In this document: piece after piece, positions 8,148-64,000 of the stretch
Layout of the letters: each line of letters begins with the position of its first letter
Numbering within the stretch: position 1 is the first letter of the stretch
NCBI GenBank assembly: GCA_963757465.1
Contig: CAVWRY010000002.1
Coordinates: 72,905-136,904, forward strand
DNA from: an uncultured Chloroflexia bacterium
GTDB lineage: Bacteria; Chloroflexota; Anaerolineae; Anaerolineales; Villigracilaceae
Direction: 5' to 3'
Length of the DNA: 64,000 nt
Notes under the pieces: generated by a model
Seen by the model: the letters and a program-made list of their open reading frames with translations, nothing else
Told to the model about the DNA's origin: nothing
Database searches by the model: none
Position numbers and translations under genes: made by a program

Positions 8148-9286
8148 TCGATGAATTACGCAGTCATCTGAGCGTCAAGATCCTGCTTTCATACCTGGCT
8201 GTCATTTTACTGGCGGCGTTCATCATGGTCAGCGCTACGCAAATCACCCTGCCTGGCGCATTTAGCCGTCATCTGGGCGACATGAATCCGCAGATGATGA
8301 GCGACCGTCCGCTCGGTGGGCCTCCCCAGAACCGTCCTAACTTCATCCCTGATCTTTACAATGGTTTTCGCGCCAGCTTCAATGATGCGCTGACCCTTGC
8401 CCTGTTGGCCTCCGGGCTGGCGGCGCTGGGCGTCAGCCTGTTTTTTAGTCGCAGCATTGTTGCGCCTTTGCAAGCCATCATGAAGGCATCCCAGCGTATT
8501 GCCGACGGACACTTTGACGAGCGCGTGCGCGTTACAGGCACCGACGAACTTGCCCAGCTTGGCAGGCGCTTCAACCGCATGACGGAGCGTCTCGAGCAGA
8601 CCGAACTGATGCGTCGTCAACTGCTTGGGGATGTCAGCCACGAGTTGCGCACACCGTTGACGGCGATTGGCGGCTACATGGAAGGCCTGATTGACGGTGT
8701 GCTGCCCGCTACGCCCGAAACCTACGAACAGGTGCGTCATGAAGCCCTGCGCCTGAGTCGCCTTGTCGACGATTTGCAGGAACTCAGCCGTGTTGAGTCG
8801 CATTCGTTTCAACTGGATTTGCGCCCGATGGCATTGTCGATCCCTTTGGCGACGGCTGCCAGACGGTTGGCCCGGCCCCTTGAAGAAAAACGCATCACCC
8901 TTACCCTCAGCCTGCCCGCGGATTTGCCAGCCGTTCTGGCGGACGAGGATCGCCTGACCCAGGTGCTGACGAATTTGCTCGGCAATGCAGTGGCCTACAC
9001 CCCGGCGGATGGCACTGTGACTGTTTCGGCGGCGCAGCGCGGTAACGAAGTGCGCGTCACCATCACAGATAGTGGCATTGGCATTCCTGCCGAGCATTTG
9101 CCCTATATCTTTGACCGTTTCTATCGTGTTGATGCATCTCGCTCGCGCGGCGCAGGTGGCGGCTCCGGCATCGGCCTGACGATTGCCCGCCATCTTGTCG
9201 AGGCGCATGGCGGTCGCATCCAGGTCGAAAGCGCCGGGGAAGGCAAAGGCAGTGCTTTTACCTTTACCTTGCAGGTGGCAAAATGA
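8144..9286 (+). CDS. sensor histidine kinase (TM-HAMP-HisKA-HATPase_c)
   Basis: H-box 'SHELRTPLT'. 'LGNAVAYT', 'DSGIGIP', 'GGSGIGLTIAR'. ATGA overlap with the regulator. Confidence 0.93.
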   Translation: MIDELRSHLSVKILLSYLAVILLAAFIMVSATQITLPGAFSRHLGDMNPQMMSDRPLGGPPQNRPNFIPDLYNGFRASFNDALTLALLASGLAALGVSLFFSRSIVAPLQAIMKASQRIADGHFDERVRVTGTDELAQLGRRFNRMTERLEQTELMRRQLLGDVSHELRTPLTAIGGYMEGLIDGVLPATPETYEQVRHEALRLSRLVDDLQELSRVESHSFQLDLRPMALSIPLATAARRLARPLEEKRITLTLSLPADLPAVLADEDRLTQVLTNLLGNAVAYTPADGTVTVSAAQRGNEVRVTITDSGIGIPAEHLPYIFDRFYRVDASRSRGAGGGSGIGLTIARHLVEAHGGRIQVESAGEGKGSAFTFTLQVAK

Positions 9287-9387
9287 CTAAACAAGGTTAT
9301 CGGGCAAACGCCAGTCAGCCGTAGGGCAGGCGTCAAGCAGTTCGCAGCCACACGTGATAAAGTAAGGCTACTTCTCCTCCTTAACAA

Positions 9388-9420
9388 AGAGAGCCGGGGT
9401 CGGCGTCCCCGGCTCTCTTG
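9388..9420 (+). terminator. putative rho-independent terminator
   Basis: agagagccgggg-tcggcgt-ccccggctctct: 12-bp GC-rich stem with a weak T tract. Confidence 0.55.
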
Positions 9421-9498
9421 ATTCCTGTAAACCTGTTGATTTTGATCGTATGGGGCTAAAATCAATCAACCGTGTCTGATTGTCTTACAGGAGAAAAC

Positions 9499-10371
9499 AT
9501 GAAAACCAATCCTCGTCCTCTATTGTTTGGCCTTAGTCTTGTTGCGCTGATGCTTTTTGCTTGCAACCTCGCCGCCCCCACGCCCACCACTGTTCCAGGG
9601 TTGATGGAGACCCTTGTTGCTGCAACACTTCAAGTGATGGCATCTCCCACAGCAGCCACCATCCCCGCCACGGATCTGCCTCCCCTCGCCACTGCTACCT
9701 CAGCCCCCTTGCCGCCGCCAACAACGCCGCCAACAAATACGTCTGCGCCGGTTGGCGGTGCTGCTGTGCGCATCAAATTCGCAACCGGTGCCACTTCAGG
9801 AGTTCAGGAAGGGCAGCTACAGCCAGGCCAGTCTCAGCGCTTTTTGGTCGGTGCAGCCGCAGGGCAGCCCTTGATGGTTTCCGTCAACTCGTTGAACAAC
9901 GATGTGACTTTCTCGGTGACAGGTGTCTCTGACGGCCATGTTCTCGTGGCTGCATCTGAGCAGCTTGGTTCCTGGCAAACCATGCTCACCACCACGCAGG
10001 ACTATCTCATCCAGGTCTATGCCGGGGCGAAGACCGAAAATTTTACCTTGAACATTATCACCCCGGCGCGCATCAAATTTGCCCCTGGGGCTGTCTCTGC
10101 AAAATTAAGCGGTGCCACTGTTGGTGGTTTAAACGTTGCCTACGTGATCCGCGCCAATGCCGGGCAAAAGCTTCAACTGACTCTGGCTGCGCCGCAAGGT
10201 AACGCAGTTTTGAGCATGTACGGTTATCAGGATGGTCAACCTTACCTGCGCTATGTAGTTGAACAAACGGCCTTCGACATGACTTTGCCTGCCACGCAGG
10301 ATTACATCATTCAGGTTGTCCCACGTGCCGGGGCAGTGGCTGATTATGATTTAACCGTGGAAATTAAATAA
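9499..10371 (+). CDS. secreted lipoprotein with two tandem ~95-aa beta-domain repeats
   Basis: AGGAGA RBS. Lipobox 'LMLFAC'. Pro/Thr linker. Internal repeat 'VRIKFATGATS...DYLIQVY' / 'ARIKFAPGAVS...DYIIQVV'. Confidence 0.75.
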   Translation: MKTNPRPLLFGLSLVALMLFACNLAAPTPTTVPGLMETLVAATLQVMASPTAATIPATDLPPLATATSAPLPPPTTPPTNTSAPVGGAAVRIKFATGATSGVQEGQLQPGQSQRFLVGAAAGQPLMVSVNSLNNDVTFSVTGVSDGHVLVAASEQLGSWQTMLTTTQDYLIQVYAGAKTENFTLNIITPARIKFAPGAVSAKLSGATVGGLNVAYVIRANAGQKLQLTLAAPQGNAVLSMYGYQDGQPYLRYVVEQTAFDMTLPATQDYIIQVVPRAGAVADYDLTVEIK

Positions 10372-13893: not shown

Positions 13894-15093
13894 CTAAAGC
13901 ATCACTTTGGTTGCTTTTAATCGCATTGTAAATGTACTGCCCTGGCCAACATTGCTTTGAACCGAGAGATTTCCATTATGTTGTTTGATGACTTGATACG
14001 TAATCGACAGCCCTAAACCGATGCCGCCGAAGAGGTCTTTGTCGTTTCGATCAATATGATAAAAGCGGTCAAAAATGCGGGAAATGTTGCCTGCTTCAAT
14101 ACCAATTCCTTCATCCACTACATCCACTACAACATCATTGGCTTCTTCACGGATTTTAATGGTGATATGACCGCCGTTGGGGCTGAATTTTACTGCATTG
14201 TCGATCAATGCCATCAAAGCACGTTCCAGCGATTTGTGGTCGCCAGAGACATTCGGCAGATCAGGTTCCGCATTGACGTTAATGGTCACCATGTTTGCTG
14301 CGGCTTTGTCCTCGTATTTTTTTGCTACATCTTCAACAATCTCAACCATGTTAACCGGCTGAAATTTGGGCAAAATCAAATCCATTTCTTGCATGAAAAG
14401 AATATCATTGACCAGCGTTGTAATCTGGTGGATATTGCGCGTCACAGTTTCCAGCGCGTCGGGTATCTTGTCGCCTGAAATTGCGCCTTTTTGCATCAGT
14501 TGAAGAAATCCGCCAGCAGCCATTAAGGGTGTGCGCAGTTCGTGAGCCATATTGCTTAAAAATTCGCGGCGGGTTAGTTCTTCTTCGGCCAGTTTTTGGT
14601 AGGCATGGGCCAATTCGGATGCACGCATACGCAAGTCTTCAATGGCCATTTCATCATTTCCCCGCAGCCGATTGGAAATTTCACGCACCATTGCGATTGA
14701 AACGGTGGTTGAACGCTGCAACACCCGATCAAAATTTTCCTTGTCAATTTCGAGCACGGTCACATGTGTGGTTGCGGTGACATTGGCAGCACGGGGTGCG
14801 TTGTGGATCAAGGCCATTTCGCCAAAAAAAGCGCCCGGTCCCAGTGATTTCAAATAGCGTTGTTCCAGATTGTTGATCATCTTTGTGATGTCAACCGTTC
14901 CATCCAGCAGAATGTAAAAGGTTGCTTCGATGGCGCCTTCATGACAGAGCACACTGCCCGAAGCAAAATTTTTTACTTCGGCGTGCGAAATCATTTCATC
15001 CATTTCGAACTGGGATATTCCCGGAAAAGCAATGGGGATGATTTCTGCTGGTGATGGGATGTTTTTGCGTGGAAGATTGAGCTTATTATGCAT
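13894..15093 (-). CDS. cyclic-nucleotide-binding domain histidine kinase (orphan)
   Basis: CAP_ED 'FFGEMALIHNAPRAANV'. H-box 'AHELRTPL'. 'DNAVKFSP', 'DEGIGI', 'GGIGLGLSI'. No adjacent response regulator. Confidence 0.88.
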   Translation of the reverse strand: MHNKLNLPRKNIPSPAEIIPIAFPGISQFEMDEMISHAEVKNFASGSVLCHEGAIEATFYILLDGTVDITKMINNLEQRYLKSLGPGAFFGEMALIHNAPRAANVTATTHVTVLEIDKENFDRVLQRSTTVSIAMVREISNRLRGNDEMAIEDLRMRASELAHAYQKLAEEELTRREFLSNMAHELRTPLMAAGGFLQLMQKGAISGDKIPDALETVTRNIHQITTLVNDILFMQEMDLILPKFQPVNMVEIVEDVAKKYEDKAAANMVTINVNAEPDLPNVSGDHKSLERALMALIDNAVKFSPNGGHITIKIREEANDVVVDVVDEGIGIEAGNISRIFDRFYHIDRNDKDLFGGIGLGLSITYQVIKQHNGNLSVQSNVGQGSTFTMRLKATKVML

Positions 15094-15191
15094 AAAAAGA
15101 CACCTTGCTTGAGCTATATACTTAATCTTATCATGGAAGCAGTCTGTTTTGGGCGTCCGCTCTTTTCGCTTAGCTAAAAAAATGGTAAATA

Positions 15192-15222
15192 AAAAAAGCC
15201 GGGCGAGTAGCGCCCGGCTTTC
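15192..15222 (-). terminator. rho-independent terminator of the IscA-like gene
   Basis: Minus strand reads aaagccgggcg-ctac-tcgcccggcttt followed by a T-run. Confidence 0.8.
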
Positions 15223-15236
15223 TGCTTTCTGAAAAA

Positions 15237-15698
15237 TTAGTTAGCGCTGCCGCAACCGCAATTTCCGCCGCAGCCGCAAGAGCTTTCGGATTCTGAATGG
15301 CTGTGAGCCTCGCTGGATGAACCACATCCGCAGGAACCACCACCACACCCGCACGAGCCGCCTTTTTGGGAGTTCGGGCTGTCTACAAGGAAGCCAGCGC
15401 CACGGACGGGGTCGTTGACAAAGTCAATCTTTGCGCCAACCAGGTAGTTCATGGATTGGTCATCAATGAGAACTTTCACGCCATCAGTTTCGAAGGACAT
15501 GTCATTTTCATGGATATTATTATCCAGTGCCATGCCGAACTGAACGCCACTACAACCGCCGCCTGCGACATATACACGGAGGCCGTAGCCTTCCAATTTG
15601 CGTTCGGCAAGAATTTCACGTACTGCATTTGCGGCGGCAGATGTGATTGTGACGGTTTCATTTATAACCTGAAAGTTGGTTTCGATTTCCTGAAGCAT
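15237..15698 (-). CDS. HesB/IscA-family Fe-S cluster insertion protein with extended Cys/Gly-rich tail
   Basis: AAGGAGAA RBS. 'GLRVYVAGGGCSGVQFGM', 'LIDDQSMNYLVGAKIDF'. The tail carries four CGC motifs: 'SCGCGGGSCGCG...SCGCGGNCGCG'. Confidence 0.85.
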   Translation of the reverse strand: MLQEIETNFQVINETVTITSAAANAVREILAERKLEGYGLRVYVAGGGCSGVQFGMALDNNIHENDMSFETDGVKVLIDDQSMNYLVGAKIDFVNDPVRGAGFLVDSPNSQKGGSCGCGGGSCGCGSSSEAHSHSESESSCGCGGNCGCGSAN

Positions 15699-16822: not shown

Positions 16823-17728
16823 TCATAAGGTTTGGCGAGATAGCAAAGCAAAAACTGCAATAATTGCCAGTTGCGCCATTGGATAGTAGCTGGCCCTGTC
16901 AAACAGTTTGGCGGCCAGTCGTCCTTCGTGTTGTTTGTAGAGTTGGAAGCCAGGCACCAGCAGCAGAAAGAATCCGGCAGCGGCGCTGGCGATTAGGTAT
17001 GCAATGCCCAGGGGGAGGGGCGAAGCCAACGGTAGGAACAGGCTGGTAAGCACGGTCAGCCCGAGGGTAATCAACACCACCAGCCCCGCCCTTTGCGGGC
17101 CGAAATGAATCGGGATGGTTTTGGCACCAACGCGCAAATCTTCAACAGTATCGTTCCAATCAGCGGGTACGTTTTGCCCACCAATTTCCCAGAAGAGAAT
17201 CCAGACGAAGAGTAGCAACAAAAAATAAGGGGATGGGTTGCGGTCTACGACAAAAACGGCGGAGATGGGTCCGCTGGCTTTGACCAATCCGCTGACCAAA
17301 GTGCGCCAGTAGGTGACTTTGAGCAGCAGGCAGTAAATTACTTCCAGCAGGGCGGCGGCAATCAGAATGAAGATGATGGCCGGGTTGAGAATGTAAGAGC
17401 CAACCAGCGCCAGGGCAAACCAAAAACCAAACCATAGCAAACCACTCCGATAAGGAAGCACATTTTGCGCGAGGGGATAGCGCATGTCTGACGATTCGAC
17501 AGAATAGCCTGCGTTAATGCCGCCTGCAAATTTTTCCTTGTCTACTGCCATGCCGACAAGGTCATTGAGGGCATAAATGGCGGTGTAGGCTGCAAAGGCG
17601 GTGAAGATCGAGAGCAGGATGATTTGCCAGCTTGGAAAATTGCCGAGCCACAGGATGGCGCAAAAGCCGGGGGCGGCCAGGTCTAAAACACCGTGCATAG
17701 TTCTGGAGAGTGCCAAAAATCGTTTCAT
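16823..17728 (-). CDS. UbiA-superfamily prenyltransferase (EboC-like by context)
   Basis: About 9 TM helices. 'YALNDLVGMAVDKE' (NDxxDxxxD) and second Asp-rich motif 'DWNDTVEDLRVGAKTIP'. Confidence 0.85.
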   Translation of the reverse strand: MKRFLALSRTMHGVLDLAAPGFCAILWLGNFPSWQIILLSIFTAFAAYTAIYALNDLVGMAVDKEKFAGGINAGYSVESSDMRYPLAQNVLPYRSGLLWFGFWFALALVGSYILNPAIIFILIAAALLEVIYCLLLKVTYWRTLVSGLVKASGPISAVFVVDRNPSPYFLLLLFVWILFWEIGGQNVPADWNDTVEDLRVGAKTIPIHFGPQRAGLVVLITLGLTVLTSLFLPLASPLPLGIAYLIASAAAGFFLLLVPGFQLYKQHEGRLAAKLFDRASYYPMAQLAIIAVFALLSRQTL

Positions 17729-17759
17729 CGAATGGATCCCTGTGGCTAAGTTTTTGTGT

Positions 17760-18470
17760 TTATTGTTTTTTGATAAAGTGCATCATGTAGTTCATGTCTT
17801 CGACATTGTCAGCGACTTTGAAGGTGTGCATGATTGGGTTGAAGATCAGGCTGGCAATGCGCGAAAATGCGAGACCATTCTTTTGTGACCAGAAGGTCAG
17901 TTCGCTGGGCTTAATCAATTTGCTGTAGGTATGCGTCCCCTTTGGAAGCATGTGCAAAATATATTCGCCAACGAAAATGACTGCGAAAAGCGACTTGGGC
18001 GTGCGGTTGATGCTGGAGAAAAAGGCGTGACCACCCGGTTTGAGTGCCTGGGCACAGGCCGCAACGACCTTTTCGGGTTCGGGGACATGTTCGAGCATTT
18101 CCATGCACGTGACAACATCAAAGGTGCCTGCCTGCTCACGGGCGAGCTCTTCGGCGCTGACGACACGGTAGTCGATGGATAAGCCCTGGGATTTGGCATG
18201 CAATTTGGCGGCTTCAATCGACGGTTGGGACAGATCGATGCCGGTTACCCGACCTCCAGCCTTTGCCAGTGCTTCGGACAGGATTCCGCCGCCGCAGCCT
18301 ACGTCCAATACCTTTGGCGAAGCCACCGTTAACTTTTCGGTGATGAATTTGGTCCGCAGCGGGTTGATGGTATGCAGCGTGCCCATCTCACCCTTTAAAT
18401 CCCACCAGATGTCAGCAACATTGTCAAACTTGGTAATTTCTTCGCCGTCAAAATTATTAAATTCGGTCAT
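17760..18470 (-). CDS. ubiG: UbiG-type SAM-dependent O-methyltransferase
   Basis: Colinear by eye with proteobacterial UbiG: 'WWDLKGEMGTLHTINPLR', 'VLDVGCGGGILSE', 'DVVTCMEMLEHVPEP', 'YILHMLPKGTH...LIKPSEL'. Confidence 0.8.
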   Translation of the reverse strand: MTEFNNFDGEEITKFDNVADIWWDLKGEMGTLHTINPLRTKFITEKLTVASPKVLDVGCGGGILSEALAKAGGRVTGIDLSQPSIEAAKLHAKSQGLSIDYRVVSAEELAREQAGTFDVVTCMEMLEHVPEPEKVVAACAQALKPGGHAFFSSINRTPKSLFAVIFVGEYILHMLPKGTHTYSKLIKPSELTFWSQKNGLAFSRIASLIFNPIMHTFKVADNVEDMNYMMHFIKKQ

Positions 18471-19596
18471 GGTGTAATACCATCCTGTTTACAAGCGCTT
18501 GATGCGCAGATTGGATTTCATCGTATCGGATGTCGTTGACAAAGGTACATTCGCCAAGCCCATCGGGCATGGGTACTCTTTGAAGGCCGTTGCGGTGATA
18601 GGTTCGTTCTTCCAGTGATTGCCAGAGCGTATCAACGTCCAGCGCTGCAATGTTGAGCGGAATTCCGAGATTGGCGACCAGTTGAAATATGCGCTCAATC
18701 TCTGCGTCGGTTAACATGCCACGTGCGTGGGCAATCAGGCACGAGACGATAATATCCAGCAGTACAGCCTCGCCATGCAGCAAATCGGCTTCGCGACGGG
18801 TTTCGAGGCCGTAACTGAAGGTGTGTCCAAAATCGACTTTGCGCGCCAGGTCATCTTCGAAGAGATTCGGCTCCAACTCCTCGCGCATGCCAGCAATCGC
18901 GCTGTCAAGCAGGATGGTGCCCATTTCATTCTGAAACTGACAGTTGACGCTGCTGGCGCCGTGACTTTCGAGCAGAGCAAACAGCCCGGCATCTTTGATG
19001 ACAGCCAGCTTGATGATTTCGCCTACGCCGTTCAGAATATGTCGTTTGGGGAGGGTTTTCAGGAATGATTTATCGAGCAAAACTTTTTTTGGCGCCTCGA
19101 ATGAGCCGATGCGGTTTTTGTTTCCGTTGTAGTTGATGCCGGTTTTGATGCCGATGGATGCATCCACATAGCCCATCAGGGTGGTGGGAACTTTGATGTG
19201 CGGAACGCTGCGACGGTAGGTACTGGCGACAAAGCCGACGACATCTGTCAGCACGCCGCCACCGATGGCGATGATCGGCTCGTCCCGGCGATGGATCGGA
19301 AAAGCATCGAGTGCCCGGACAATGGAGAAGTAATACTCAACGGTTTTGTTTTCTTCCCCACCAGGGAAAGTGACGATCTTTGCTTCGATTCCGTGGTGCT
19401 CGAAGTAGTTTCTGATTTCAACCGCGTAATGTTTTTCCACGTTGGCGTCGATCACGACAAGGCGACGACGGCTCTGCGTTGCGTTTGGAAAGAGCAGGTC
19501 GGTGTTCTGTGGGTCAAATAAATTGGGCGAATTTAGAATTTCGTATTCGATTGTGCGCTGATAGGTCACACGCCATTGTTTGCGTTCGGTGTTCAT
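18457..19596 (-). CDS. sugar-phosphate cyclase of the 3-dehydroquinate synthase superfamily (EboD/EEVS/DDGS-like)
   Basis: 'IAIGGGVLTDVVGFVASTYRRSVPHIKVPTTLMGYVDASIGIKTGINYNGNKNRIGSF'. 14-nt overlap with the methyltransferase gene. Confidence 0.85.
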   Translation of the reverse strand: MNTERKQWRVTYQRTIEYEILNSPNLFDPQNTDLLFPNATQSRRRLVVIDANVEKHYAVEIRNYFEHHGIEAKIVTFPGGEENKTVEYYFSIVRALDAFPIHRRDEPIIAIGGGVLTDVVGFVASTYRRSVPHIKVPTTLMGYVDASIGIKTGINYNGNKNRIGSFEAPKKVLLDKSFLKTLPKRHILNGVGEIIKLAVIKDAGLFALLESHGASSVNCQFQNEMGTILLDSAIAGMREELEPNLFEDDLARKVDFGHTFSYGLETRREADLLHGEAVLLDIIVSCLIAHARGMLTDAEIERIFQLVANLGIPLNIAALDVDTLWQSLEERTYHRNGLQRVPMPDGLGECTFVNDIRYDEIQSAHQALVNRMVLHHDRI

Positions 19597-20072
19597 TTCA
19601 CCTGTCGCCAGTTGGACTTTGCATCCAATACCCTGCTGGCAAGGGTCTGCGCCAGTTCCAGACTGTGATTCTTATAATTTCCACATTGCTGAATATTGGC
19701 ATAAGGGACTTCATTGGCAATCAAAATATCGTTCAGGATGTTTTCGTAAGTGCCGCAAATTTTTTCGGCGCCGCCTTCGTTGAACAGGATCAGGTAAAAG
19801 CCTGTCTGGCAGCCCATTAACCCGACTGAGATGAAATTTTGCGGCATGTATTTTTGAAAACCCGCCAGCAGAAAATGTTCAAAGGAATGCATTTCTGTGG
19901 TTGATAGGAAATCTTTATTGGGCTGATTGATCCGCAAATCGACTGCGTAGACCACATCGCCGGCTTGTCCAACGGTAAAGGAACGCAATTTGACATGTGG
20001 CGCGCTCAGCAATCGGTGATCCAACTCGCCAACGGTATCTGCAACCCAGCCTAATTGTTCGACATTAATCAT
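19593..20072 (-). CDS. luxS: S-ribosylhomocysteine lyase
   Basis: 'HSFEH' (HxxEH metal site), 'MGCQTGFY', 'QCGNYKNHSLELAQ'. AGGAG lies 7 nt before ATG 20072 (track ORF starts at 20090). ATGA overlap with the cyclase. Confidence 0.85.
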   Translation of the reverse strand: MINVEQLGWVADTVGELDHRLLSAPHVKLRSFTVGQAGDVVYAVDLRINQPNKDFLSTTEMHSFEHFLLAGFQKYMPQNFISVGLMGCQTGFYLILFNEGGAEKICGTYENILNDILIANEVPYANIQQCGNYKNHSLELAQTLASRVLDAKSNWRQVK

Positions 20073-20126
20073 AGAATGGCTCCTATTCATTTATAAAATT
20101 TTGCCTACTGAACCAACGCAAATGGA

Positions 20127-21368
20127 TTAGACGTACTGCGCTAAATGGCTGTAACTATCCGCCAGTGCTTTTTCCCAGGATTGGACATGGTGATACAACT
20201 CAACGGATGCGTAGCCGGAAAAACCGTTATCGGAGAGTGCCTTGAAGCTGGCGGCAAAATCCATCGTCCCTTCGCCGGGAATCTCGTGGAAGTGGACAAT
20301 GCTCGTCAGGGTGTTGGCGACCATCTTGTCCATCAATAATTTGCCTTCGCTATCTTTTGTTGTGCGCAGGTAGTAGAGAATCGGTTTGGCGCGTTCAAGC
20401 ACATCAAAGCTGAGGGCGGGCACCGAGATCAGGTAGGTGAAAATCTCGTCGTCAAAGGAGGATGCCCCGGCATAGAGACGATTGTAGTCGATGAAGGCTA
20501 CCTCCATTTGGATGTTGACGCTGCCGAGAATTTGCTCGATCTGTTTCTTTTGTGTCGTGCTGATGGGATCGTCGTAAAAATAAATTGGGTGGTTGCGGTC
20601 GACAAGCAGATAGTTGGCCGATTCGGGGAAGTAGATCAGGTAATGGGCGAAGTTCAGGTCGAGTTTTAGATTTTCGGCCATCTTGATAATTTTCAGGTTG
20701 TAGCCAGCTTTGGCATCGGAGACGTGCAAGTAGCGTGTGAGCGGGGCGGCTTTTGCCAGTGCGCCAATGTAATCGACATCAGAGCAGTACATGTGGCACA
20801 TATCGAGATGCAGGCCAAAGCGTGGCGAGTTGACGGCGTTGATCAATCGCAATCCATCCTCGACCGTTTCAATGTACATGCCAGGTTCGGGTTCCACCAG
20901 CAGGGTGATGTCTTCATCGTCGTGGATTTCTTTCAAACTACGGTGAACGCTATCCGCCAGCAGCTCCAGCGGATCTTGATCCGGATGGAGCACATGTTCC
21001 TCGCGGATAAATCCGCTGCCAAAGGTGACGAGATTCACTCCCAGCTTGCGGGCGACATCGATTCCGCGTTTAACCAGGCTGATGCGACGCTTTCTACCCG
21101 CCAAATCCACGCTCATCATCGATGGTTCATGCGGACGGGATGGGGTGAAAAAGTGGGATGCGGTGGCGACGCAGGCCGCTTTGACCTGGGTGGTCTGTAG
21201 TTTGCGTTTGACACTGGCAATGTCTTCATCGCTGATGTTGAAGGGGTTGAACTGGTCACGATGAAAGGAAATCTCAATGCCAGGGTAGCCGGCCTGATCT
21301 ACAACGTCAATGGCGTCCAGAAAGGGCAGGTTGGTCAGGCCAAATGTGCTGTAACTGAGTTTAATCAT
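20127..21368 (-). CDS. xylose-isomerase-like TIM-barrel protein with large insertion (EboE-like by size and context)
   Basis: 'GYPGIEIS', 'LLVEPEPG', 'GLHLDMCHMY', 'LHVSDAK' ... 'VHFHEIPGEGTMDF', 'ASVELYH'. It is 413 aa, versus roughly 270 aa that I recall as typical for this fold. Confidence 0.8.
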   Translation of the reverse strand: MIKLSYSTFGLTNLPFLDAIDVVDQAGYPGIEISFHRDQFNPFNISDEDIASVKRKLQTTQVKAACVATASHFFTPSRPHEPSMMSVDLAGRKRRISLVKRGIDVARKLGVNLVTFGSGFIREEHVLHPDQDPLELLADSVHRSLKEIHDDEDITLLVEPEPGMYIETVEDGLRLINAVNSPRFGLHLDMCHMYCSDVDYIGALAKAAPLTRYLHVSDAKAGYNLKIIKMAENLKLDLNFAHYLIYFPESANYLLVDRNHPIYFYDDPISTTQKKQIEQILGSVNIQMEVAFIDYNRLYAGASSFDDEIFTYLISVPALSFDVLERAKPILYYLRTTKDSEGKLLMDKMVANTLTSIVHFHEIPGEGTMDFAASFKALSDNGFSGYASVELYHHVQSWEKALADSYSHLAQYV

Positions 21369-21406
21369 GGTTGCTGCTCCGATTTGTTAGCGTCGTCTTG
21401 TGTCTT

Positions 21407-21904
21407 TTATTTGACGATCAGAACATACATTGTGCCATCCGCCTGGGGAATAATTGAGACGGAGGCTGTTGCAGTATCTTTCATGAAAATCAATAGAATC
21501 GTTTCAGTTGTGCCTTTGCCAGTTGCAAACATTGTCCAGCCCAATTTTGCCATTGCCTTGGCATAGAAATCCTGGATTTCGTCGGATGTTGCCTGGATGG
21601 TAAAGGTATAGCCTTTGCTGTCGCCATCGCCTGCGATGGCTTTTGGCATAATCGGGAAACCTTCCCAACTGGTTGCGGGTTTTCCGGTGGGCATAGTCAA
21701 AGCCGGCTCGGTTGGCGTTTCGGTTGGGGAGATGGCTGTTGCGGTGAGGGTTGGCGTAATGGTCGGCGCAGGCGTGGACGTGGTGGTTGGCAAATCTGTG
21801 GCAGTGGGGATGGGCGTTGTTGTGGGGGTTGGCGCAAGCGTGCTGCAAGCAGTAAGTGCGATTGCCAAAAATGGAATAAGGATGATTTTATGGATGGTTT
21901 TCAT
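21407..21904 (-). CDS. lipoprotein, hypothetical (Thr/Pro linker plus small alpha/beta domain)
   Basis: Lipobox 'ALTAC'. 'PTPTTTPIPTATDLPTTTSTPAPTITPT' linker. Confidence 0.7.
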   Translation of the reverse strand: MKTIHKIILIPFLAIALTACSTLAPTPTTTPIPTATDLPTTTSTPAPTITPTLTATAISPTETPTEPALTMPTGKPATSWEGFPIMPKAIAGDGDSKGYTFTIQATSDEIQDFYAKAMAKLGWTMFATGKGTTETILLIFMKDTATASVSIIPQADGTMYVLIVK

Positions 21905-21959
21905 TTGTATTCCTCATAGCGCTTTAATGTTTTGTGGACGGTATTATATAGCAGGCAAA

Positions 21960-22601
21960 TTATTTTTGCCCATACAAGAAGGTCAACGTGCCAAAGAAGG
22001 TCTGAAAATCGCCCATGGGAAGCATCGTCAGGCCGGGCGCGCCAAAGATTTCGGGTAGCAGGCCGTCGATGTTGTCATTAGCTTCTTCAAATTCGTGCAG
22101 CAAGGGGCCGAGTAGTTTTGCGTAAAGCGTGCTGGGTTTGCCAAAGTCGATGATGTGCAGTTGTCCGCCAGGTTTTAGCACGCGATAGATTTCTTTCGCG
22201 GTGCGGATTTTGTCGGGGGTTTTCAGGTGATGAATCATAATGCTGGAAAGAACGCGGTCAATCGAGCCATCGGCGTAGGGTAGAGCAAAGGTCATGCCCT
22301 CGTCGAATGTCACGTCCACGCCCAGGGTAGTAGCTTTCTTGAAGGCGATGCCCAAAATTTCCGGGTCGCCATCCAGGCCGCTGACATGTGCCAGGGGTTG
22401 CGACTGCTTCGCCATGATTGCCAGCGTGCCGGTGCCACAGCCCAAATCCACCACGCGCTGACCGGGTTGGATGTTTGCCTGCTCAATCAGGCGGCGCTTA
22501 TAGATTACGTCGCGCACCAATCCGCTTTGGATGGCGTCAAAATAAGGGGTCAGAAAGCGAAAGCTGAGCGCGGGGATGTAATCTTGTTTGTCTGTGGTCA
22601 T
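21960..22601 (-). CDS. class I SAM-dependent methyltransferase
   Basis: AAGGAGA RBS before ATG 22601. 'VVDLGCGTGTL', 'RVLSSIMIHHL', 'VLKPGGQLHIIDF'. Confidence 0.85.
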   Translation of the reverse strand: MTTDKQDYIPALSFRFLTPYFDAIQSGLVRDVIYKRRLIEQANIQPGQRVVDLGCGTGTLAIMAKQSQPLAHVSGLDGDPEILGIAFKKATTLGVDVTFDEGMTFALPYADGSIDRVLSSIMIHHLKTPDKIRTAKEIYRVLKPGGQLHIIDFGKPSTLYAKLLGPLLHEFEEANDNIDGLLPEIFGAPGLTMLPMGDFQTFFGTLTFLYGQK

Positions 22602-22744
22602 GAAAAAATCTCCTTCTTGCTGATACACTCATTGTATCAAACTGTTTGTTCATTTTAGCACAAATGAGATCGTAAAGGTGCGAATTGACAAATTTGACAG
22701 ATTCACCGAACTTTTGATGCATAAGCTGTGTATAGTATTGTGTG

Positions 22745-23326
22745 ATGCAAAATAAAATGACAGAAACCAACTTGCAATTAATCCGCCGCGCACAGGCTCA
22801 CGACCGGGATGCTTTTGCCGCGCTCTTTGCGCAGTACAAAAACTTGGTATATCGCAGCGCTTATCTGATGCTTGATGATGCGCATGATGCTGAAGATGCC
22901 CTTCAGGAAGTTTTTGTGCAGGTGCATCGTTCGCTGGTGGGGTTTGATCCGCAAAAGGGTGCGTTTACGACCTGGCTGCACCGCATCACAATCAACCATT
23001 GTCTTAACCATCGTCGCAGACGCGGTTTTGTTGCTGCATCGCTTGATGAAAGCCTATCTTCGGGCGAATTCCCTGGGGCACAGTCAGCAGAGCAGCAATC
23101 TGTTTGGCAGGCGGTGTGCGGATTGGGTGAGAAGTTGCAGGTTGTGATTGTGTTGCGTTATTTCTGGGATTTGTCGTATGCAGAAATTGCCCAAATTTTG
23201 GAAATTCCCCTGGGGACGGTTAAATCAAGGCTCGATCTGGCCTTGAAAACGCTGCGCCCCGTGTTCGACGATGAAAAATCCCGCTCCGGCTCTGGCCCGG
23301 CGGTAGAGGTGACTCATGAATTGTGA
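22745..23326 (+). CDS. ECF (group 4) RNA polymerase sigma factor, copy 1
   Basis: Region 2 'DAEDALQEVFVQVHRSL...FTTWLHRITINHCLNHRR'. Region 4 'SYAEIAQILEIPLGTVKSRL'. Confidence 0.9.
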   Translation: MQNKMTETNLQLIRRAQAHDRDAFAALFAQYKNLVYRSAYLMLDDAHDAEDALQEVFVQVHRSLVGFDPQKGAFTTWLHRITINHCLNHRRRRGFVAASLDESLSSGEFPGAQSAEQQSVWQAVCGLGEKLQVVIVLRYFWDLSYAEIAQILEIPLGTVKSRLDLALKTLRPVFDDEKSRSGSGPAVEVTHEL

Positions 23327-24836
23327 ACAGGTACAGTCATTATTGGTCTCATATCTTCATCACGAGACAACCCCTTCTGAACGGATATTGATCTGCACCC
23401 ACATCTCAACTTGTGAGGCCTGTCAGAAGGAACTGGCACTGCTTTCCACCACGCAGAGTCAGATCAGTTTGGCGTTGCAGCGTCGGGCTGCCAACGCCGT
23501 CCCATTGCCCGACGCATGGGACAGACTGGAAGCAAGACTGGTAAAGGATGCACAACCTGCGCCAGTGCAACCCGCAATGTGGTTCTCGCGCTTTGGGCCC
23601 GGCGTGAACCGCATCACTTCAAGACTTTTTTCAGGAGACCCAAAAATGAACAAGCGATATACACTGGCAACCGCCAGCATTGCAATACTGGCCGCAATTA
23701 CGCTGACTGCTGTTTTAATGTTCAACAGTGCCACATCCGTTTCGGCACAGCAAATCATTGATCGGGCCACCGCAGTCCAATCCGCTGCGCAAGACACTAC
23801 CGGGATTGAGCACTACCGTATTGAAAGCTACCGTAACATGCTGGCGCTCGCAGGCGACAACCCTGGAACCACGACCACAACCGATGACTATGATTACACT
23901 AAAAAAGGTCTGTACCGCTCCACTACTTATGACGCGGCTGGCAAGATCCTGACTGTCTCTTCAACGGATGGTGCTTTCTCTTACTGGCTGCCCGAAGCAG
24001 AGAGTGTTGTTCATCGCAGCCCGATTGGTTCGGATGGTCAACGAAAAGCAATGGCACAATCTGACGATGGTAATACCCAGGCAGCGAGTTTGTTCAATTA
24101 TTACCGCAACAATCCGCGCGTGGAACTGAAAGGCAAAGAAACCCGCCCCGATGGTACACAGATTTATGTGCTGATCGACCGCAACTACCAGACTAGCAGT
24201 GATGGAAAAGATCAGCCAGTCTATACCGGTTCAATGAGCATGGTTTTCGATGCCCAAACGTATCGGCTGTTGGAGAGTGAGACCACCGTGCATAAAAACG
24301 GACAGGATATTGTGGTCGAAAAGGTGCGCTTCCTGCTGCAAGAGACTCTCCCGGTGGAAACATCAGTAGCCTGGGACCTGAGCGACCTGAAAGGCGTCAC
24401 TTTTGTGGACGATGCCCCTGCTGATGAAACGGCTGAAGCACTGCCTGTGCCGATCTCGCTCGAAGAACTCGCCACGCATGAGCATACCTATGTGCTCAAA
24501 ACGATCCCCGCAGGGTATACACTCGAAATCGTTGCTGCACCTCACCAGCCAATCGATCAGCCCTACGCCTACGAAGCCAATTACAAGAATGCTGCTGGTG
24601 ATTATTATTTTGGCTTGCAGGCCGTCGGTATAATGGAACCCGGCTTCATCGAATCCAGTTTTTATGATGGCAGCTACAAAGCAAAATCGGGTTTGATTTT
24701 GAATTACGGCGAAAATGGCCCAGGCGGCATGTTGACCACCCCCGATGGTTACAGTTTTCTGGTCTTCACTAGTTTCAAATCCACTACCCGTGAACAGTTT
24801 CAGGCGCTGATTGAAGATTTGGTGCCGCTCCATTAA
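23316..24836 (+). CDS. zf-HC2 anti-sigma factor with TM helix and ~370-aa extracytoplasmic domain, copy 1
   Basis: 'HISTCEACQKEL' (Hx3Cx2C). TM 'LATASIAILAAITLTAVLMF'. 11-nt overlap with the sigma gene. Confidence 0.8.
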   Translation: MNCEQVQSLLVSYLHHETTPSERILICTHISTCEACQKELALLSTTQSQISLALQRRAANAVPLPDAWDRLEARLVKDAQPAPVQPAMWFSRFGPGVNRITSRLFSGDPKMNKRYTLATASIAILAAITLTAVLMFNSATSVSAQQIIDRATAVQSAAQDTTGIEHYRIESYRNMLALAGDNPGTTTTTDDYDYTKKGLYRSTTYDAAGKILTVSSTDGAFSYWLPEAESVVHRSPIGSDGQRKAMAQSDDGNTQAASLFNYYRNNPRVELKGKETRPDGTQIYVLIDRNYQTSSDGKDQPVYTGSMSMVFDAQTYRLLESETTVHKNGQDIVVEKVRFLLQETLPVETSVAWDLSDLKGVTFVDDAPADETAEALPVPISLEELATHEHTYVLKTIPAGYTLEIVAAPHQPIDQPYAYEANYKNAAGDYYFGLQAVGIMEPGFIESSFYDGSYKAKSGLILNYGENGPGGMLTTPDGYSFLVFTSFKSTTREQFQALIEDLVPLH

Positions 24837-24870
24837 TCCTGCAAGGCAAAGCCCAACCGGGCAAACCATC

Positions 24871-24907
24871 AACATCCCCGACATCTTCAAGGTGTTGGGG
24901 ATGTTTT
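24871..24907 (+). terminator. rho-independent terminator
   Basis: aacatcccc-N17-ggggatgtt followed by a T tract. Confidence 0.65.
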
Positions 24908-24968
24908 CTTAACCGAAAAACTCCCACTTTTCACATCCAAAGGATAGTATAGATAGAGGACCTCATCT

Positions 24969-25589
24969 GTGATTGTGAAACCCCCAGGCTTGGACGAAAA
25001 AAGAGCAATTACCCAACTAAAGCAAGGTGATCTCGACGGAATGGAAGTGCTCGTACGGCGCTATCAGATCCGCGCTGTTTCTGCTGCCTTTTTGATTGTG
25101 CGCGACCCAAAGTTGGCTGAAGATATTGTTCAAGATGCTTTTCTGCACGTGGCGGAAAAGATCAGCCAGTTTGACGAGAATCGGCCTTTTGGGGCGTGGT
25201 TTTTGCGCAGCGTTGTCAATGCATCGGTCAAGGCGGCAAAACGGCAAAAGCGTTTGATCCCCCTGAATGGGGAGGCGCAGGATGAAGAAGGCACCAGCAT
25301 AGCGGATTGGTTAATGGACCCAGACCCGCATCCGGAATTCCTGATCGAAACGGAGCAAATCCGTCAGGTGGTCTGGAAAGCCCTCGGGCAGTTGTCTCCC
25401 GATCAACGGGCGGCGATTATCATGCGCCATTTTCTCGATATGAGCGAAGCCGAAATGACAGGCGAGTTGCAGCGTCCGCTGACCACCATTCGCTGGCGTT
25501 TGAAAACGGCGCGCAACCAGCTTAGGAAAATCCTGCAACATTTCTGGAAATCAGACTATCAGGAAGTGAACGATGAAAGACAAATCTAA
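24969..25589 (+). CDS. ECF RNA polymerase sigma factor, copy 2
   Basis: 'AEDIVQDAFLHVAEKI...FGAWFLRSVVNASVKAAKR'. 'SEAEMTGELQRPLTTIRWRL'. GTG start in the track. Confidence 0.88.
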   Translation: MIVKPPGLDEKRAITQLKQGDLDGMEVLVRRYQIRAVSAAFLIVRDPKLAEDIVQDAFLHVAEKISQFDENRPFGAWFLRSVVNASVKAAKRQKRLIPLNGEAQDEEGTSIADWLMDPDPHPEFLIETEQIRQVVWKALGQLSPDQRAAIIMRHFLDMSEAEMTGELQRPLTTIRWRLKTARNQLRKILQHFWKSDYQEVNDERQI

Positions 25590-26931
25590 TTCCGTCATCC
25601 AATCCATGCTGGAACATTTGGCACACGAAACCATCCATCCAGATCAAGTAAATATGTGGCCTGCTATTCGGGCCAGCCTTGCGACACGTAAAATGTTATC
25701 CAAACCCAAGGAGCTTTCAGTGAACAAACGAATCCTACTCTCTGCTGGTACAGCAGTGCTATTTCTAACGATTGTGGTTGTTTTCATGGCCCGTAGTGCC
25801 ACCCCTGTCTCTGCGCAGGCCATTCTCGACAAGGCTTATGCAGCCCAATCCAGTGCAAGCCCGGCGGATGGGATTGAGCACATCCGCAGTGAGATATATA
25901 CCAATATTCAGGTCTTACCCGCCGATCAAGGTACGGATCAGATTGTCGAAAGTTATCACGATCTGGAAACCGGCAAAAGGCGGCTGGTGACATTGGATGC
26001 CAAAACGGGCAAGGTGGTTGATGTCTTCGGATACAACGGTACATTCACTTACAGCGTTGAATACCCCGCCGACAGTCCGCGCCCGACGAATCCCAGTGGC
26101 CCCTTGACAGTCTATCGCACGCCGCAAGGCAAACTGGCAGATCAGGATGGCAAACGGCGTGGTGATGACATCACGTCGAAAGACATTTTTGACAAAATGC
26201 GCGGTCAGTCTGATACGCATCTTGACGGTCAGGAAACCTGGCCTGACGGGCGCCAAGTCTACGTGCTTAGTACGCAGCAGCCCATCAAAGTGCAGGTCAA
26301 CGGAAAAATTGAGCAGCCAATTGGCAAAGTGATCGTTTACTTTGACGTGGAAACCTACAAGATGGTTGGTAACCGCACGACCATGCAAAAAGATGGACAG
26401 GAAATCATCATTACTTCACAAACCATCCTGGCTGATGAATTTCTCCCCGCGAGCGCCAGCGTTGCCTGGGACTTAAGCGACCTGCAAGGCATCACCCTGG
26501 TCGATGACCCCAACCGCGAACATGGCGATCTGTTGCCCGAAGTTATCACCTCGCAGCAGCTTGCCGCTCGAACAACAACAGCCTATCTGCTCAAGTCCGT
26601 CCCGGATGGCTACTCGCTGGAAATCAGCGAACCACAGCGCAAAAAGGGCAGCACTGAGCCGTATATTTACATTGCTTCTTATCGCACTGAAGCCAATGAT
26701 TACTTTGTCATTCAGACGGGCATGTACAAGGATTTCAGCGACGAAGGGGAAGCTTACACCACCGCCAGTGGACTGGTTTTGCACTTTACGCGTGAAGTGA
26801 TTGACCCATCGGGCAAACAGTATGTCACAATGGGTGTGGATGCGCCCAATGGCGTTTTCTTCATGGTCACAAGCACGCTGCCCAAAGAGACCGTCAAAGC
26901 CTGGGCAGAGAATCTGGTGCTGGTGAAATAG
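25573..26931 (+). CDS. anti-sigma-like membrane protein, copy 2 (no zinc motif)
   Basis: Paralog of 23316-24836: 'VSAQAILDKAYAAQS...GIEHIRSEIY' and 'VAWDLSDLQGITLVDD'. 17-nt overlap with sigma copy 2. Confidence 0.78.
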   Translation: MKDKSNSVIQSMLEHLAHETIHPDQVNMWPAIRASLATRKMLSKPKELSVNKRILLSAGTAVLFLTIVVVFMARSATPVSAQAILDKAYAAQSSASPADGIEHIRSEIYTNIQVLPADQGTDQIVESYHDLETGKRRLVTLDAKTGKVVDVFGYNGTFTYSVEYPADSPRPTNPSGPLTVYRTPQGKLADQDGKRRGDDITSKDIFDKMRGQSDTHLDGQETWPDGRQVYVLSTQQPIKVQVNGKIEQPIGKVIVYFDVETYKMVGNRTTMQKDGQEIIITSQTILADEFLPASASVAWDLSDLQGITLVDDPNREHGDLLPEVITSQQLAARTTTAYLLKSVPDGYSLEISEPQRKKGSTEPYIYIASYRTEANDYFVIQTGMYKDFSDEGEAYTTASGLVLHFTREVIDPSGKQYVTMGVDAPNGVFFMVTSTLPKETVKAWAENLVLVK

Positions 26932-31518: not shown

Positions 31519-32526
31519 ACGTCTGATGTGAAATCAAAAAGTGGTTTGAAAAGTTTGAATATCGATATTGAAATCTGAGAAAAGAATACGGCGTAATAAA
31601 TGGCTAGTCATTTTGAGAATTACACGAGTTGATAAACCGAGCACAGTTTTGCAAAGCAAACGTTCAATATTACGCCCAGTATTTTGGATTTCATGGAAAA
31701 CACCTTCGATACGTTCCCTAGTTTTGGAAAGCCAGCGGTCAAGTTCTTTCGAATTTTGAAGGTGCTGATTAGAACGTTTTGGTGTCCATATCAAATTATT
31801 GGTTTGCTCAAAAATATTGGTCTGCCACTCAAAACCGATAAAACCCTTATCAGCAAAAATATCACAATATGTCAGATGATCAATGACCGCTTCTGCGGCA
31901 AAACGTTCATCTAAATTAGCTGGAACCAGATCATAAATAACAGGAATTCCTTGTAAAGTGGAAATTGTGACCAATTTGTAGCCGAAGTAATCCATTTTGC
32001 GGCTGGCACAATGTCCATAATCGGCACTCCCAGCAAAATCGCTTCTGTTTTTGCGTCTTTTGTAGCCAAGAACTGGCACAGGTTTGGTATCTAGCAGATA
32101 TTTGTTATGCAAATGACAGTGCTTTTGAACAATCCAGTAGCGTCTCAATTGTTCCACCAGCAGACGTAATGCCCGTGCTCGACGATTGAACTGGCTTTGA
32201 TCCACTAATCTTGGAAATAGTGCCAGATAGTTGGCCCGAATAAACTCGACATACTGCGTTTCGCTCGGATAGGGAATGTAATCTTGCGCCAGCATCAATG
32301 TCATCAACTCGCTATCTTTGAATTCAGGCTTCTTACCAGCTTTTCCTTTCAGTAGTTTCACGCCTTCTATTTCGTACCAATCATCTACCAGCACATAGAT
32401 GATCGTTAAAACATCAGAAATGGTTATACTTGTCATGGGAATGTCCTTTCAAGATTTCGTTTGGCGACTTTATCTTGAAGGCATTCCCAATTCCTGTCAA
32501 TATTTCTTCGATTTCACATCAGACGT
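31519..32526 (-). mobile_element. IS982-family-like insertion sequence (~1.0 kb)
   Basis: Perfect 17-bp terminal inverted repeats ACGTCTGATGTGAAATC (31519-31535) and GATTTCACATCAGACGT (32510-32526). Single DDE transposase ORF. Visibly AT-rich. No clear target-site duplication seen. Confidence 0.8.
31534..32436 (-). CDS. IS982-family DDE transposase
   Basis: 'VLVDDWY...KPEFKDSELMTLMLAQ', 'LLDTKPVPV', 'DYFGYKLV', 'IFADKGFIG'. 300 aa. Confidence 0.8.
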   Translation of the reverse strand: MTSITISDVLTIIYVLVDDWYEIEGVKLLKGKAGKKPEFKDSELMTLMLAQDYIPYPSETQYVEFIRANYLALFPRLVDQSQFNRRARALRLLVEQLRRYWIVQKHCHLHNKYLLDTKPVPVLGYKRRKNRSDFAGSADYGHCASRKMDYFGYKLVTISTLQGIPVIYDLVPANLDERFAAEAVIDHLTYCDIFADKGFIGFEWQTNIFEQTNNLIWTPKRSNQHLQNSKELDRWLSKTRERIEGVFHEIQNTGRNIERLLCKTVLGLSTRVILKMTSHLLRRILFSDFNIDIQTFQTTF

Positions 32527-63288: not shown

Positions 63289-63393
63289 AAGTAAATGTTA
63301 TTCCATTACACAGCCAGCTAATTACAGCTTATGCCGCGCATGTATGAAAAACCAGATAAGAAAATTATAGCACCAGCAGCCTTGTTTTTGCTT

Positions 63394-63816: not shown

Positions 63817-64000
63817 TGTTCTCTCTATTCTCTACAAAAACTTTTGTAAAAGTCTTTTTGCCACAGAGCGCACAGAGATTTTGAGAAAATCTTTTAAACG
63901 CTGGTTTTCTCCGTGATCTCTGTGGCGAAGCTTTTTTCTACTGGGTACTACTTTCTACTGTCTGCTTTCCCCGCCATCCCCAGCTTCTTCATCACCACCG

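Follow-up and report, generated by a model that had tools for sequence, protein, structure and literature searches.

A horizontally mobile five-gene module with an EEVS-type cyclase, a LuxS paralogue and a UbiG paralogue in Anaerolineales and Proteobacteria: a candidate route to a sugar-derived prenylated lipid

This work concerns a module of five genes in an uncultured Chloroflexia bacterium of the order Anaerolineales. The sequence examined was a stretch of 64,000 nt (assembly GCA_963757465.1, contig CAVWRY010000002.1, positions 72,905 to 136,904 of the forward strand), referred to below as the window. The module encodes an enlarged TIM barrel of the xylose isomerase type, a LuxS-fold metalloenzyme, a sugar-phosphate cyclase of the EEVS type (EEVS, synthase of 2-epi-5-epi-valiolone), an O-methyltransferase of the UbiG subfamily and a divergent UbiA-family prenyltransferase. 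The five genes are kept together in two phyla, and their predicted functions could make up a self-contained, mobile pathway leading from sedoheptulose 7-phosphate (SH7P) to a membrane-anchored, O-methylated and prenylated C7 ring, a reading that we regard as evenly balanced between right and wrong.

Gene positions were taken from the list of open reading frames (ORFs) of the window letters. This list reproduced the seven consecutive minus-strand genes of the original prediction with all their coordinates, gaps and overlaps, and the domain assignments made there were confirmed by Pfam and NCBIfam. The module is formed by the following five genes:

20127–21368, minus strand: enlarged xylose-isomerase-like TIM barrel, 413 aa (Pfam PF01261, 128 bits)
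19593–20072 (longest ORF to 20090), minus strand: LuxS-fold metalloenzyme, 159 aa from the conserved start (Pfam PF02664, 113.6 bits)
18457–19596, minus strand: EEVS-type cyclase resembling 3-dehydroquinate synthase (DHQS) (Pfam DHQ_synthase domains; ValA as best PDB match)
17760–18470, minus strand: O-methyltransferase of the UbiG subfamily, dependent on S-adenosylmethionine (SAM), 236 aa (NCBIfam TIGR01983, 261.7 bits)
16823–17728, minus strand: divergent intramembrane prenyltransferase of the UbiA superfamily, 301 aa (Pfam PF01040, 86.8 bits)

From the TIM barrel to the UbiA gene, the successive spacings are a 54-nt gap, a 4-nt ATGA overlap (LuxS/cyclase), a 14-nt overlap (cyclase/UbiG-like) and a 31-nt gap. 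The shorter reading of the LuxS frame, with its start at 20072 as had been proposed, matches the N-termini of the homologues. In GC content, the cluster (0.511) is in line with the window (0.508).

A scan of one genome per species with the TIM barrel as the query returned at least 572 matching stretches, with up to two per gene. The best 80 loci from these were compared by tblastn with the seven window proteins, and 68 of them, which came from other species and had enough sequence, were informative. All five inner genes occurred together in 63 of the 68, and the order TIM barrel, LuxS, cyclase, UbiG, UbiA was kept inside 6.5 kb in 62. The neighbourhood conservation that the original prediction had put forward as a check, including the luxS and ubiG genes, thus extends beyond the window. 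Two seeming gene gaps (L009 and L019) turned out to be frameshifted cyclases, and L016 is a real exception, its UbiA gene having moved upstream. Overlapping stop and start codons were found within the module both in the window and in Frateuria soli. Relatives of the TIM barrel fell into approximately 950–980 protein clusters at 90% identity; the homologues among the matches listed were about 413 aa long and 62–96% identical, with 62–76% identity across Anaerolineales, and module carriers amounted to at least about 290 species genomes. The five genes are a conserved, translationally coupled unit, and their arrangement is far beyond chance.

The hosts were mostly metagenome-assembled genomes (MAGs) of Anaerolineales, and a further 18 loci came from Xanthomonadales and Burkholderiales, with Rhodanobacter, Dokdonella, Thermomonas, Lysobacter, Luteimonas, Chiayiivirga, Cognatiluteimonas, Castellaniella and Ottowia among the proteobacterial carriers. 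A second protein search added Frateuria soli (complete genome), Candidimonas, Alcaligenaceae and Steroidobacteraceae, and the cultured carriers include Rhodanobacter, Castellaniella, Frateuria and Cognatiluteimonas. Proteobacterial copies were nested among Anaerolineales sequences in the cyclase tree, and the UbiG tree separated Chloroflexota and proteobacterial copies into two clades; therefore, judging from these trees, the module is horizontally mobile and was transferred between phyla as one block. A complete module, 62–73% identical to the Anaerolineales type, was also observed on the 131-kb contig_57 of Mycobacterium szulgai DSM 44166 (L036; NZ_LQPW01000132.1). This 17-kb locus, of 61% GC, represents either contamination of the RefSeq assembly or a transfer into an actinobacterium.

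With regard to the individual enzymes, the cyclase is, as judged from its matches, active-site residues and phylogeny, an EEVS-type SH7P cyclase. Its best PDB match was ValA (4p53; E = 1.7e-95, 323 bits), followed by the desmethyl-4-deoxygadusol synthase (DDGS) 5tpr (2.4e-76, 260 bits) and by DHQS (~1e-41, 146 bits). The residues that distinguish the two types of SH7P cyclase, which we take to be Asp281/His360 (ValA numbering) in EEVS against Ala268/Thr347 in DDGS, reportedly following Osborn et al. 2017, were located via the PDB alignments, and the residue numbers fitted the PDB sequences after tag offsets. Asp and His were present at these positions in 67 of 67 family members each, and Glu302 of ValA was also kept; both DDGS references showed Ala and Thr. 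At the position of ValA Pro288, 66 of the 67 members carry Tyr, where every SH7P cyclase reference has Pro, and DHQS and EboD have His. In a neighbour-joining tree, whose deep nodes are without bootstrap values, the family was monophyletic and sister of the clade of ValA and the S. clavuligerus and A. vitis cyclases; DDGS, the Bacillus SH7P cyclase, EboD and DHQS all stood apart from the module cyclases and the EEVS clade, with EboD outside the SH7P-cyclase group. A DDGS identity was ruled out by Asp/His instead of Ala/Thr, by the scores and by the tree.

The phylogenetic placement that had been suggested as a check also bears on whether the cyclase could be a housekeeping DHQS (AroB) whose neighbourhood is incidental, which we find hardly credible. 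Although the protein does carry Pfam DHQ_synthase domains, it stays below the cut-off of the aroB model NCBIfam TIGR01357 (239.5 bits vs 305) and is far nearer to ValA than to any DHQS, and at three aligned DHQS active-site positions it has Asp, Tyr and His, compared to Asn, His and Val in DHQS 6lk2 (this Val lying beside the Lys-Lys pair of DHQS). Moreover, the gene order around it is kept across two phyla. Fingerprint and phylogeny together refute an AroB identity.

The methyltransferase was described in the original prediction as strikingly UbiG-like, and this was borne out: its score with TIGR01983 is 2.5-fold above the equivalog cut-off (102.95 bits), and it matched E. coli UbiG (4kdc) with 252 bits over the full length (residues 5–232). 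Identity across the family is 44–55%. The copies of both phyla are about 50% identical to E. coli UbiG, and the cluster copies form one clade; therefore they represent a separate paralogue and not the hosts' housekeeping UbiG. By these comparisons the module methyltransferase is a distinct UbiG paralogue with a predicted UbiG-type activity. The known substrates of UbiG are prenylated catechol or quinol rings. The gadusol-like reading offered originally was not supported: the cyclase has Asp/His in place of Ala/Thr, and the UbiG-like protein gave no BLASTP match at E<1 to the O-methyltransferase of the Nostoc cluster for mycosporine-like amino acids (MAAs).

The LuxS paralogue has probably been re-purposed, with a substrate different from S-ribosylhomocysteine on which it would carry out carbonyl migration and beta-elimination. 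Residues H11, R39, H54, E57, H58, C84 and C126 (B. subtilis numbering) were invariant in 79 of 79 members; all catalytic and metal residues are thus retained, and therefore the machinery for carbonyl migration and beta-elimination is intact. The position of Asp78, which along with Arg65 was identified as a substrate-binding residue of LuxS from crystal structures (PMC2656534), holds Ser in 73 of 79 members and Asp in none (0/79), which indicates that part of the homocysteine-binding site is gone. K or R is retained at the Arg65 position, and a conserved N-terminal LGW extension replaces the Ser6 region. All ten listed NCBIfam LuxS equivalog matches were below their cut-offs, the best one with 125.5 bits vs 208.

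That the protein is an ordinary S-ribosylhomocysteinase, co-transcribed to recycle the methyltransferase by-product S-adenosylhomocysteine (SAH), so that the real pathway would comprise four genes, is in our estimation improbable. It would be in line with the Pfam LuxS match, the invariant H11, R39, HxxEH, C84 and C126 and the K/R at the Arg65 position, and with the GenBank label S-ribosylhomocysteine lyase of the homologue RJP53742.1 (PMC8756737, Table A1). This contrasts with the failure to reach any of the ten equivalog cut-offs, the loss of Asp78 throughout the family and the exchange of the Ser6 region for a conserved extension. Furthermore, the luxS-type gene accompanies the module into Xanthomonadales and Burkholderiales, which use SAH hydrolase and are usually without luxS; it overlaps the start codon of the cyclase and is once fused to the TIM barrel, and no pfs/mtnN gene was linked to the module. 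The fusion protein (P0235), encoded on a 4.8-kb Logan contig and homologous to window 19593–21368, consists of 590 aa in frame, with a linker of about 20 residues between the two parts. It argues that the TIM barrel and the LuxS paralogue act together. It could be either a genuine Rosetta-stone fusion or a stop codon lost in assembly.

Between its last two barrel strands, the TIM barrel holds an insertion of some 150 aa (approximately residues 220–365). The invariant residues E161, D189, H215 and E390, within the motifs EPEPGM, HLDxxH, HVSD and VELYHH, sit where this fold usually carries metal ligands, a putative assignment made by eye rather than by structural superposition. Foldseek matches of the AlphaFold model, which inform on general chemistry and not on a specific function, included ketose 3-epimerases, L-xylulose-5-phosphate 3-epimerase (UlaE), SCO6571 and keto-glucal hydratase. 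These enzymes are metal-dependent and deprotonate beside a carbonyl, and for the TIM barrel we predict a metal-dependent enolising activity, as an epimerase or a dehydratase, with the keto-cyclitol as substrate. Small xylose-isomerase-fold proteins are encoded as well in C7-cyclitol clusters on plasmids of Agrobacterium vitis (L088, 10044–10886) and Bacillus bombysepticus (L089, 11187–11963), the latter showing weak similarity (23% identity, E=5e-7) to the parts of the window TIM barrel before and after its insertion.

The locus had been framed originally as a non-canonical ebo operon, and superficially it does hold the ebo triad, with a UbiA-family protein, a cyclase resembling DHQS and an enlarged member of the xylose isomerase fold. 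As a positive control, we employed the annotated ebo cluster on a plasmid of Deinococcus sp. QL22, whose proteins scored 472 bits for EboE (NF035939, TIM_EboE), 107 for EboC (NF035940) and 561 for EboD (NF004852/PRK06203). In contrast, the window proteins failed all three models, a check that the original prediction had itself proposed: the TIM barrel showed no NF035939 match at E<0.01 (cut-off 250 bits), the UbiA-family protein no NF035940 match, and the cyclase reached 216 bits on NF004852/PRK06203, below the cut-off of 333. BLASTP gave E=5 for the TIM barrel against EboE and E=0.43 for the UbiA-family protein against Deinococcus EboC, and hhalign aligned the TIM family with EboE at 10.6% probability, over no more than the EPEP/metal strands common to both. 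Identity of the cyclase to EboD is 29.6%, compared with 43% for an SH7P cyclase. Of the ebo core genes, neither eboB (TatD-like) nor eboF (phosphodiesterase) was among the conserved neighbours in about 80 loci, and neither had BLAST similarity to window proteins, which agrees with the absence of both noted earlier. In addition, the phyla that a preprint on thallusin (10.64898/2026.05.21.724671) names in its survey text do not include Chloroflexota. Membership in the ebo family was thus rejected against the Deinococcus control by models, BLASTP and hhalign, and at the level of orthology these sequence comparisons refute it; a reduced or non-canonical ebo cluster making thallusin or a related compound is a very improbable description of the module. 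The description of the ebo product as unknown is no longer current; that 2026 preprint ties eboB, C, E and F to thallusin.

The fifth protein belongs to the UbiA family, and all specific NCBIfam models were far below cut-off (TIGR01474, 4-hydroxybenzoate polyprenyltransferase, 32 bits vs 275); a PDB sequence search returned no match. Two Asp-rich motifs, the second of them DWNDxxED, are conserved in the prenyltransferase family.

Taken as a pathway, the five enzymes could act as follows. The EEVS-type cyclase would, on the basis of its fingerprint and phylogeny, convert SH7P, an intermediate of the pentose phosphate pathway, into 2-epi-5-epi-valiolone or a closely related stereoisomer. Two metal-dependent catalysts of enolisation beside a carbonyl, the LuxS-fold enzyme and the enlarged TIM barrel, would then move the carbonyl and eliminate two waters, giving an aromatisation without net redox change (C7H12O6 − 2 H2O → C7H8O4). 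Finally, as suggested by family membership, the UbiA-family enzyme would add a polyprenyl chain and the UbiG paralogue would O-methylate vicinal ring hydroxyls, in either order, and the pathway would end in a membrane lipid of the quinol or catechol type that bears methoxy groups and a polyprenyl chain. The conserved module holds no oxidoreductase, kinase or aminotransferase, whereas S. clavuligerus, A. vitis and Bacillus do encode such enzymes in their C7-cyclitol clusters, and this fits a redox-neutral aromatisation. A precedent for the combination of EEVS, dehydration and UbiA-type prenylation is BE-40644, which is described in section 3.7 of PMC5133447 as being made via EEVS, cyclitol dehydration and farnesylation by a UbiA-family enzyme. 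The original prediction had likewise arrived at a pathway that starts from a sugar phosphate and leads to a cyclitol or a catechol/quinol-type lipid, prenylated and O-methylated, and this part of it coincides with the explanation we favour with even confidence, once detached from the ebo and 4-deoxygadusol framing.

Several points weigh against such a pathway. Both its substrate and the aromatisation are inferred, and no polyprenyl-diphosphate synthase was linked to the module. In the prenyltransferase, the first Asp-rich motif departs from the usual form (NDxxGxxxD, with the central Asp changed to Gly), and the Tyr at the ValA Pro288 position of the cyclase may point to a product other than 2-epi-5-epi-valiolone. 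With K/R at the Arg65 position and all catalytic residues retained, the LuxS paralogue could still be a true S-ribosylhomocysteinase. The AlphaFold model of the TIM barrel is only moderate, with a predicted local distance difference test (pLDDT) of 67, and hence the limit on its fold matches stated above. Lastly, there are exceptions to the module itself, namely a locus with the TIM barrel alone (L058) and one without UbiG (L055).

The product could also be a non-aromatic isoprenoid-cyclitol metabolite, such as a prenylated and O-methylated valiolone- or gadusol-like compound or a meroterpenoid like BE-40644, serving as a protectant or signal and not as a redox lipid. We consider this unlikely, yet to be taken seriously. 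An EEVS-type cyclase suits a cyclitol metabolite, the genomic contexts of the module vary as do those of mobile biosynthetic clusters, and TIM-barrel proteins occur in other C7-cyclitol clusters too; besides, BE-40644 and ebo/thallusin both lead from a cyclitol and UbiA-type prenylation to secondary metabolites (PMC5133447; 10.64898/2026.05.21.724671). On the other hand, the module methyltransferase is close to UbiG, whose known substrates are aromatic, and lacks similarity to the 4-deoxygadusol O-methyltransferase, and the module is without an oxidoreductase of the kind required for the formation of gadusol. The degree of identity maintained across Anaerolineales (62–76%), together with an occurrence in hundreds of species, looks more like core physiology than like a specialised metabolite.

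A more specific form of the quinol/catechol pathway is that the module constitutes a third route to a ubiquinone-type benzoquinol, one which would require neither oxygen nor hydroxylases. We put this forward tentatively, on chemical reasoning alone, and deem it doubtful. In this scheme, 2-epi-5-epi-valiolone (C7H12O6) would lose its C5 hydroxyl and its exocyclic C7 hydroxyl as two waters, the loss of the latter corresponding to a LuxS-like beta-elimination of a CH2-X group beside a ketone. The result would be 5-methylbenzene-1,2,3,4-tetrol (C7H8O4), that is, the head group of ubiquinol without its methyl ethers and prenyl chain, with the four ring oxygens and the ring methyl in place. From there, ubiquinol would be reached by one prenylation, at the only ring carbon still free, and by two O-methylations of the UbiG type. 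As C7H8O4 would already bear the four oxygens and the methyl, five genes would be enough, and the lack of a decarboxylase, a C-methyltransferase or a hydroxylase would be accounted for. The scheme fits the UbiG orthology and the denitrifier-rich hosts, denitrification being common among the proteobacterial host genera. It also fits the report that many Chloroflexota are without a known quinone pathway; ubiquinone outside Pseudomonadota was shown only in 2026 (PMC13386864). If true, it would provide a high-potential quinone for Anaerolineales, and for denitrifying Xanthomonadales and Burkholderiales under anoxia.

The two remaining genes of the original seven lie just upstream of the TIM barrel:

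21407–21904, minus strand: lipoprotein with an LTAC lipobox, outside the conserved module
21960–22601 (longest ORF to 22628), minus strand: UbiE/MenG-like class I methyltransferase (MT2), with weak matches to UbiE/MenG-type models, all below cut-off

Both ORFs exist where they had been described, but neither is a conserved neighbour, and only five of the seven genes make up the conserved unit. When all flanking ORFs were clustered, no gene family recurred in more than 8 of about 80 loci. A homologue of MT2, 67–68% identical, adjoins the module in only three other loci (L013, L028 and L051), which differ in arrangement, and no convincing lipoprotein was found beside the module in other loci. 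Since no flanking family is conserved and MT2 recurs so rarely, the lipoprotein and MT2 were placed outside the module. An MT2-type gene therefore stands beside the module in four genomes and three arrangements (window 21960–22628; L013, 5351–5989; L028, 12759–13397; L051, 12594–13241), which hints at an optional extra methylation by a possible accessory gene.

Pfam scans of the proteobacterial flanks revealed only unrelated housekeeping genes, and polyprenyl synthase, nir/nor, ubi or men genes were ruled out as recurrent flanking partners, as no flanking family exceeded 8 loci. For a Chloroflexi MAG (SURF MAG 42), a published table shows these five genes beside nirS and does not discuss them (PMC8756737, Table A1); NirS was not seen as a recurrent family when the flanks were clustered, although no search was aimed at NirS itself. 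In the Frateuria soli locus (L091; CP088252.1, 1507590–1528849), a gene for a UbiD-family decarboxylase follows the module in convergent orientation, and genes for a quinol-type NorB and an SCP2-domain protein lie about 5 kb and 7 kb away, respectively; these three neighbours had no counterpart in the other loci. Two extra UbiA-family genes (8689–9741, 350 aa; 14594–15625, 343 aa), encoded on the strand opposite to the module, flank it on one Anaerolineales contig (L001).

As for the remaining window, a scan of its 20 larger ORFs revealed ordinary chromosomal genes (gyrA, rho, 2-oxoacid dehydrogenase, two-component regulators and a transposase), with no other aromatic or quinone pathway genes among them. 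A DDE transposase gene (DDE_Tnp_1 family) is located at 31534–32436, about 10 kb away from the module. On the plus strand at 22742–26931, two successive pairs were observed, each composed of a protein of about 200 aa resembling an extracytoplasmic function (ECF) sigma factor, followed by a protein of 450–500 aa, the two larger proteins having a similar C-terminal domain; an inspection of the translations by eye suggests a sigma/anti-sigma unit that has been duplicated. The GC content falls to 0.385 at 62001–64000, compared to about 0.51 elsewhere in the window.

A literature search found no paper assigning a function or a product to the five-gene set, and a search for Rhodanobacter together with LuxS retrieved general LuxS papers only; an already known product for the same architecture, which the original prediction had named as evidence that would overturn it, was thus not encountered. 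The module is therefore widespread, strongly constrained and present in cultivable bacteria, and has no published product that we found. If the proposed pathway is true, the LuxS fold, known almost only for autoinducer-2 and methyl-cycle chemistry, would gain a new function in a cyclitol pathway, and even the conservative reading would still amount to a new family of isoprenoid-cyclitol lipids. Should the product be a quinol, it would represent a sugar-derived respiratory quinone head group formed without oxygen, which bears on the sources of high-potential quinones in anaerobes and denitrifiers and on the many Chloroflexota that seem to be without quinone pathways (PMC13386864). LuxS and UbiG annotations in carrier genomes are not to be taken as evidence of quorum sensing or of the canonical ubiquinone pathway.

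Compared with known systems, the module resembles the ebo cluster (eboA–F; thallusin, saccharoquinoline) in combining a cyclase, an enlarged xylose-isomerase fold and a UbiA-family enzyme in one operon that has spread across phyla. It differs in that none of the three proteins is an orthologue of its ebo counterpart, the substrate of EboD is mannose 6-phosphate, from which a C6 cyclitol is formed, and ebo is without LuxS and UbiG. With the mycosporine/gadusol core (DDGS or EEVS plus an O-methyltransferase) it shares an SH7P cyclase directly before a SAM-dependent O-methyltransferase; unlike that core, it shows the EEVS and not the DDGS fingerprint, its methyltransferase is of the UbiG type, and it has no ATP-grasp, non-ribosomal peptide synthetase (NRPS) or oxidoreductase partner. 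The S-ribosylhomocysteinase LuxS of the activated methyl cycle, whose chemistry is a metal-assisted carbonyl migration followed by beta-elimination, is similar in fold, in the HxxEH and Cys metal site and in the catalytic Glu57/Cys84, whereas the module protein is without Asp78, has a remodelled N-terminus and sub-cut-off scores, and its gene lies within a cyclitol pathway, to a member of which it is fused in one case.

With ubiquinone biosynthesis, which has O2-dependent hydroxylases or the O2-independent UbiT/U/V proteins, the module shares a true UbiG-family O-methyltransferase and a UbiA-superfamily prenyltransferase, whose genes it carries next to each other. The module, however, lacks chorismate lyase, the UbiD/X decarboxylase, the UbiE C-methyltransferase and a hydroxylase, its ring precursor would be a sugar-derived cyclitol and not 4-hydroxybenzoate, and its prenyltransferase is far below the 4-hydroxybenzoate polyprenyltransferase cut-offs. 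The BE-40644 pathway of Actinoplanes sp. A40644, as outlined in PMC5133447, is alike in that EEVS forms a C7 cyclitol from SH7P, which is followed by dehydration and prenylation by a UbiA-superfamily enzyme. Compared by this description only, it differs as an actinomycete secondary-metabolite cluster linked to mevalonate-pathway genes, with no LuxS-fold or UbiG-type enzyme reported. We would group the five-gene module with the hybrid pathways that join an isoprenoid to a cyclitol, and see a real chance that it is a quinone pathway of a new kind.

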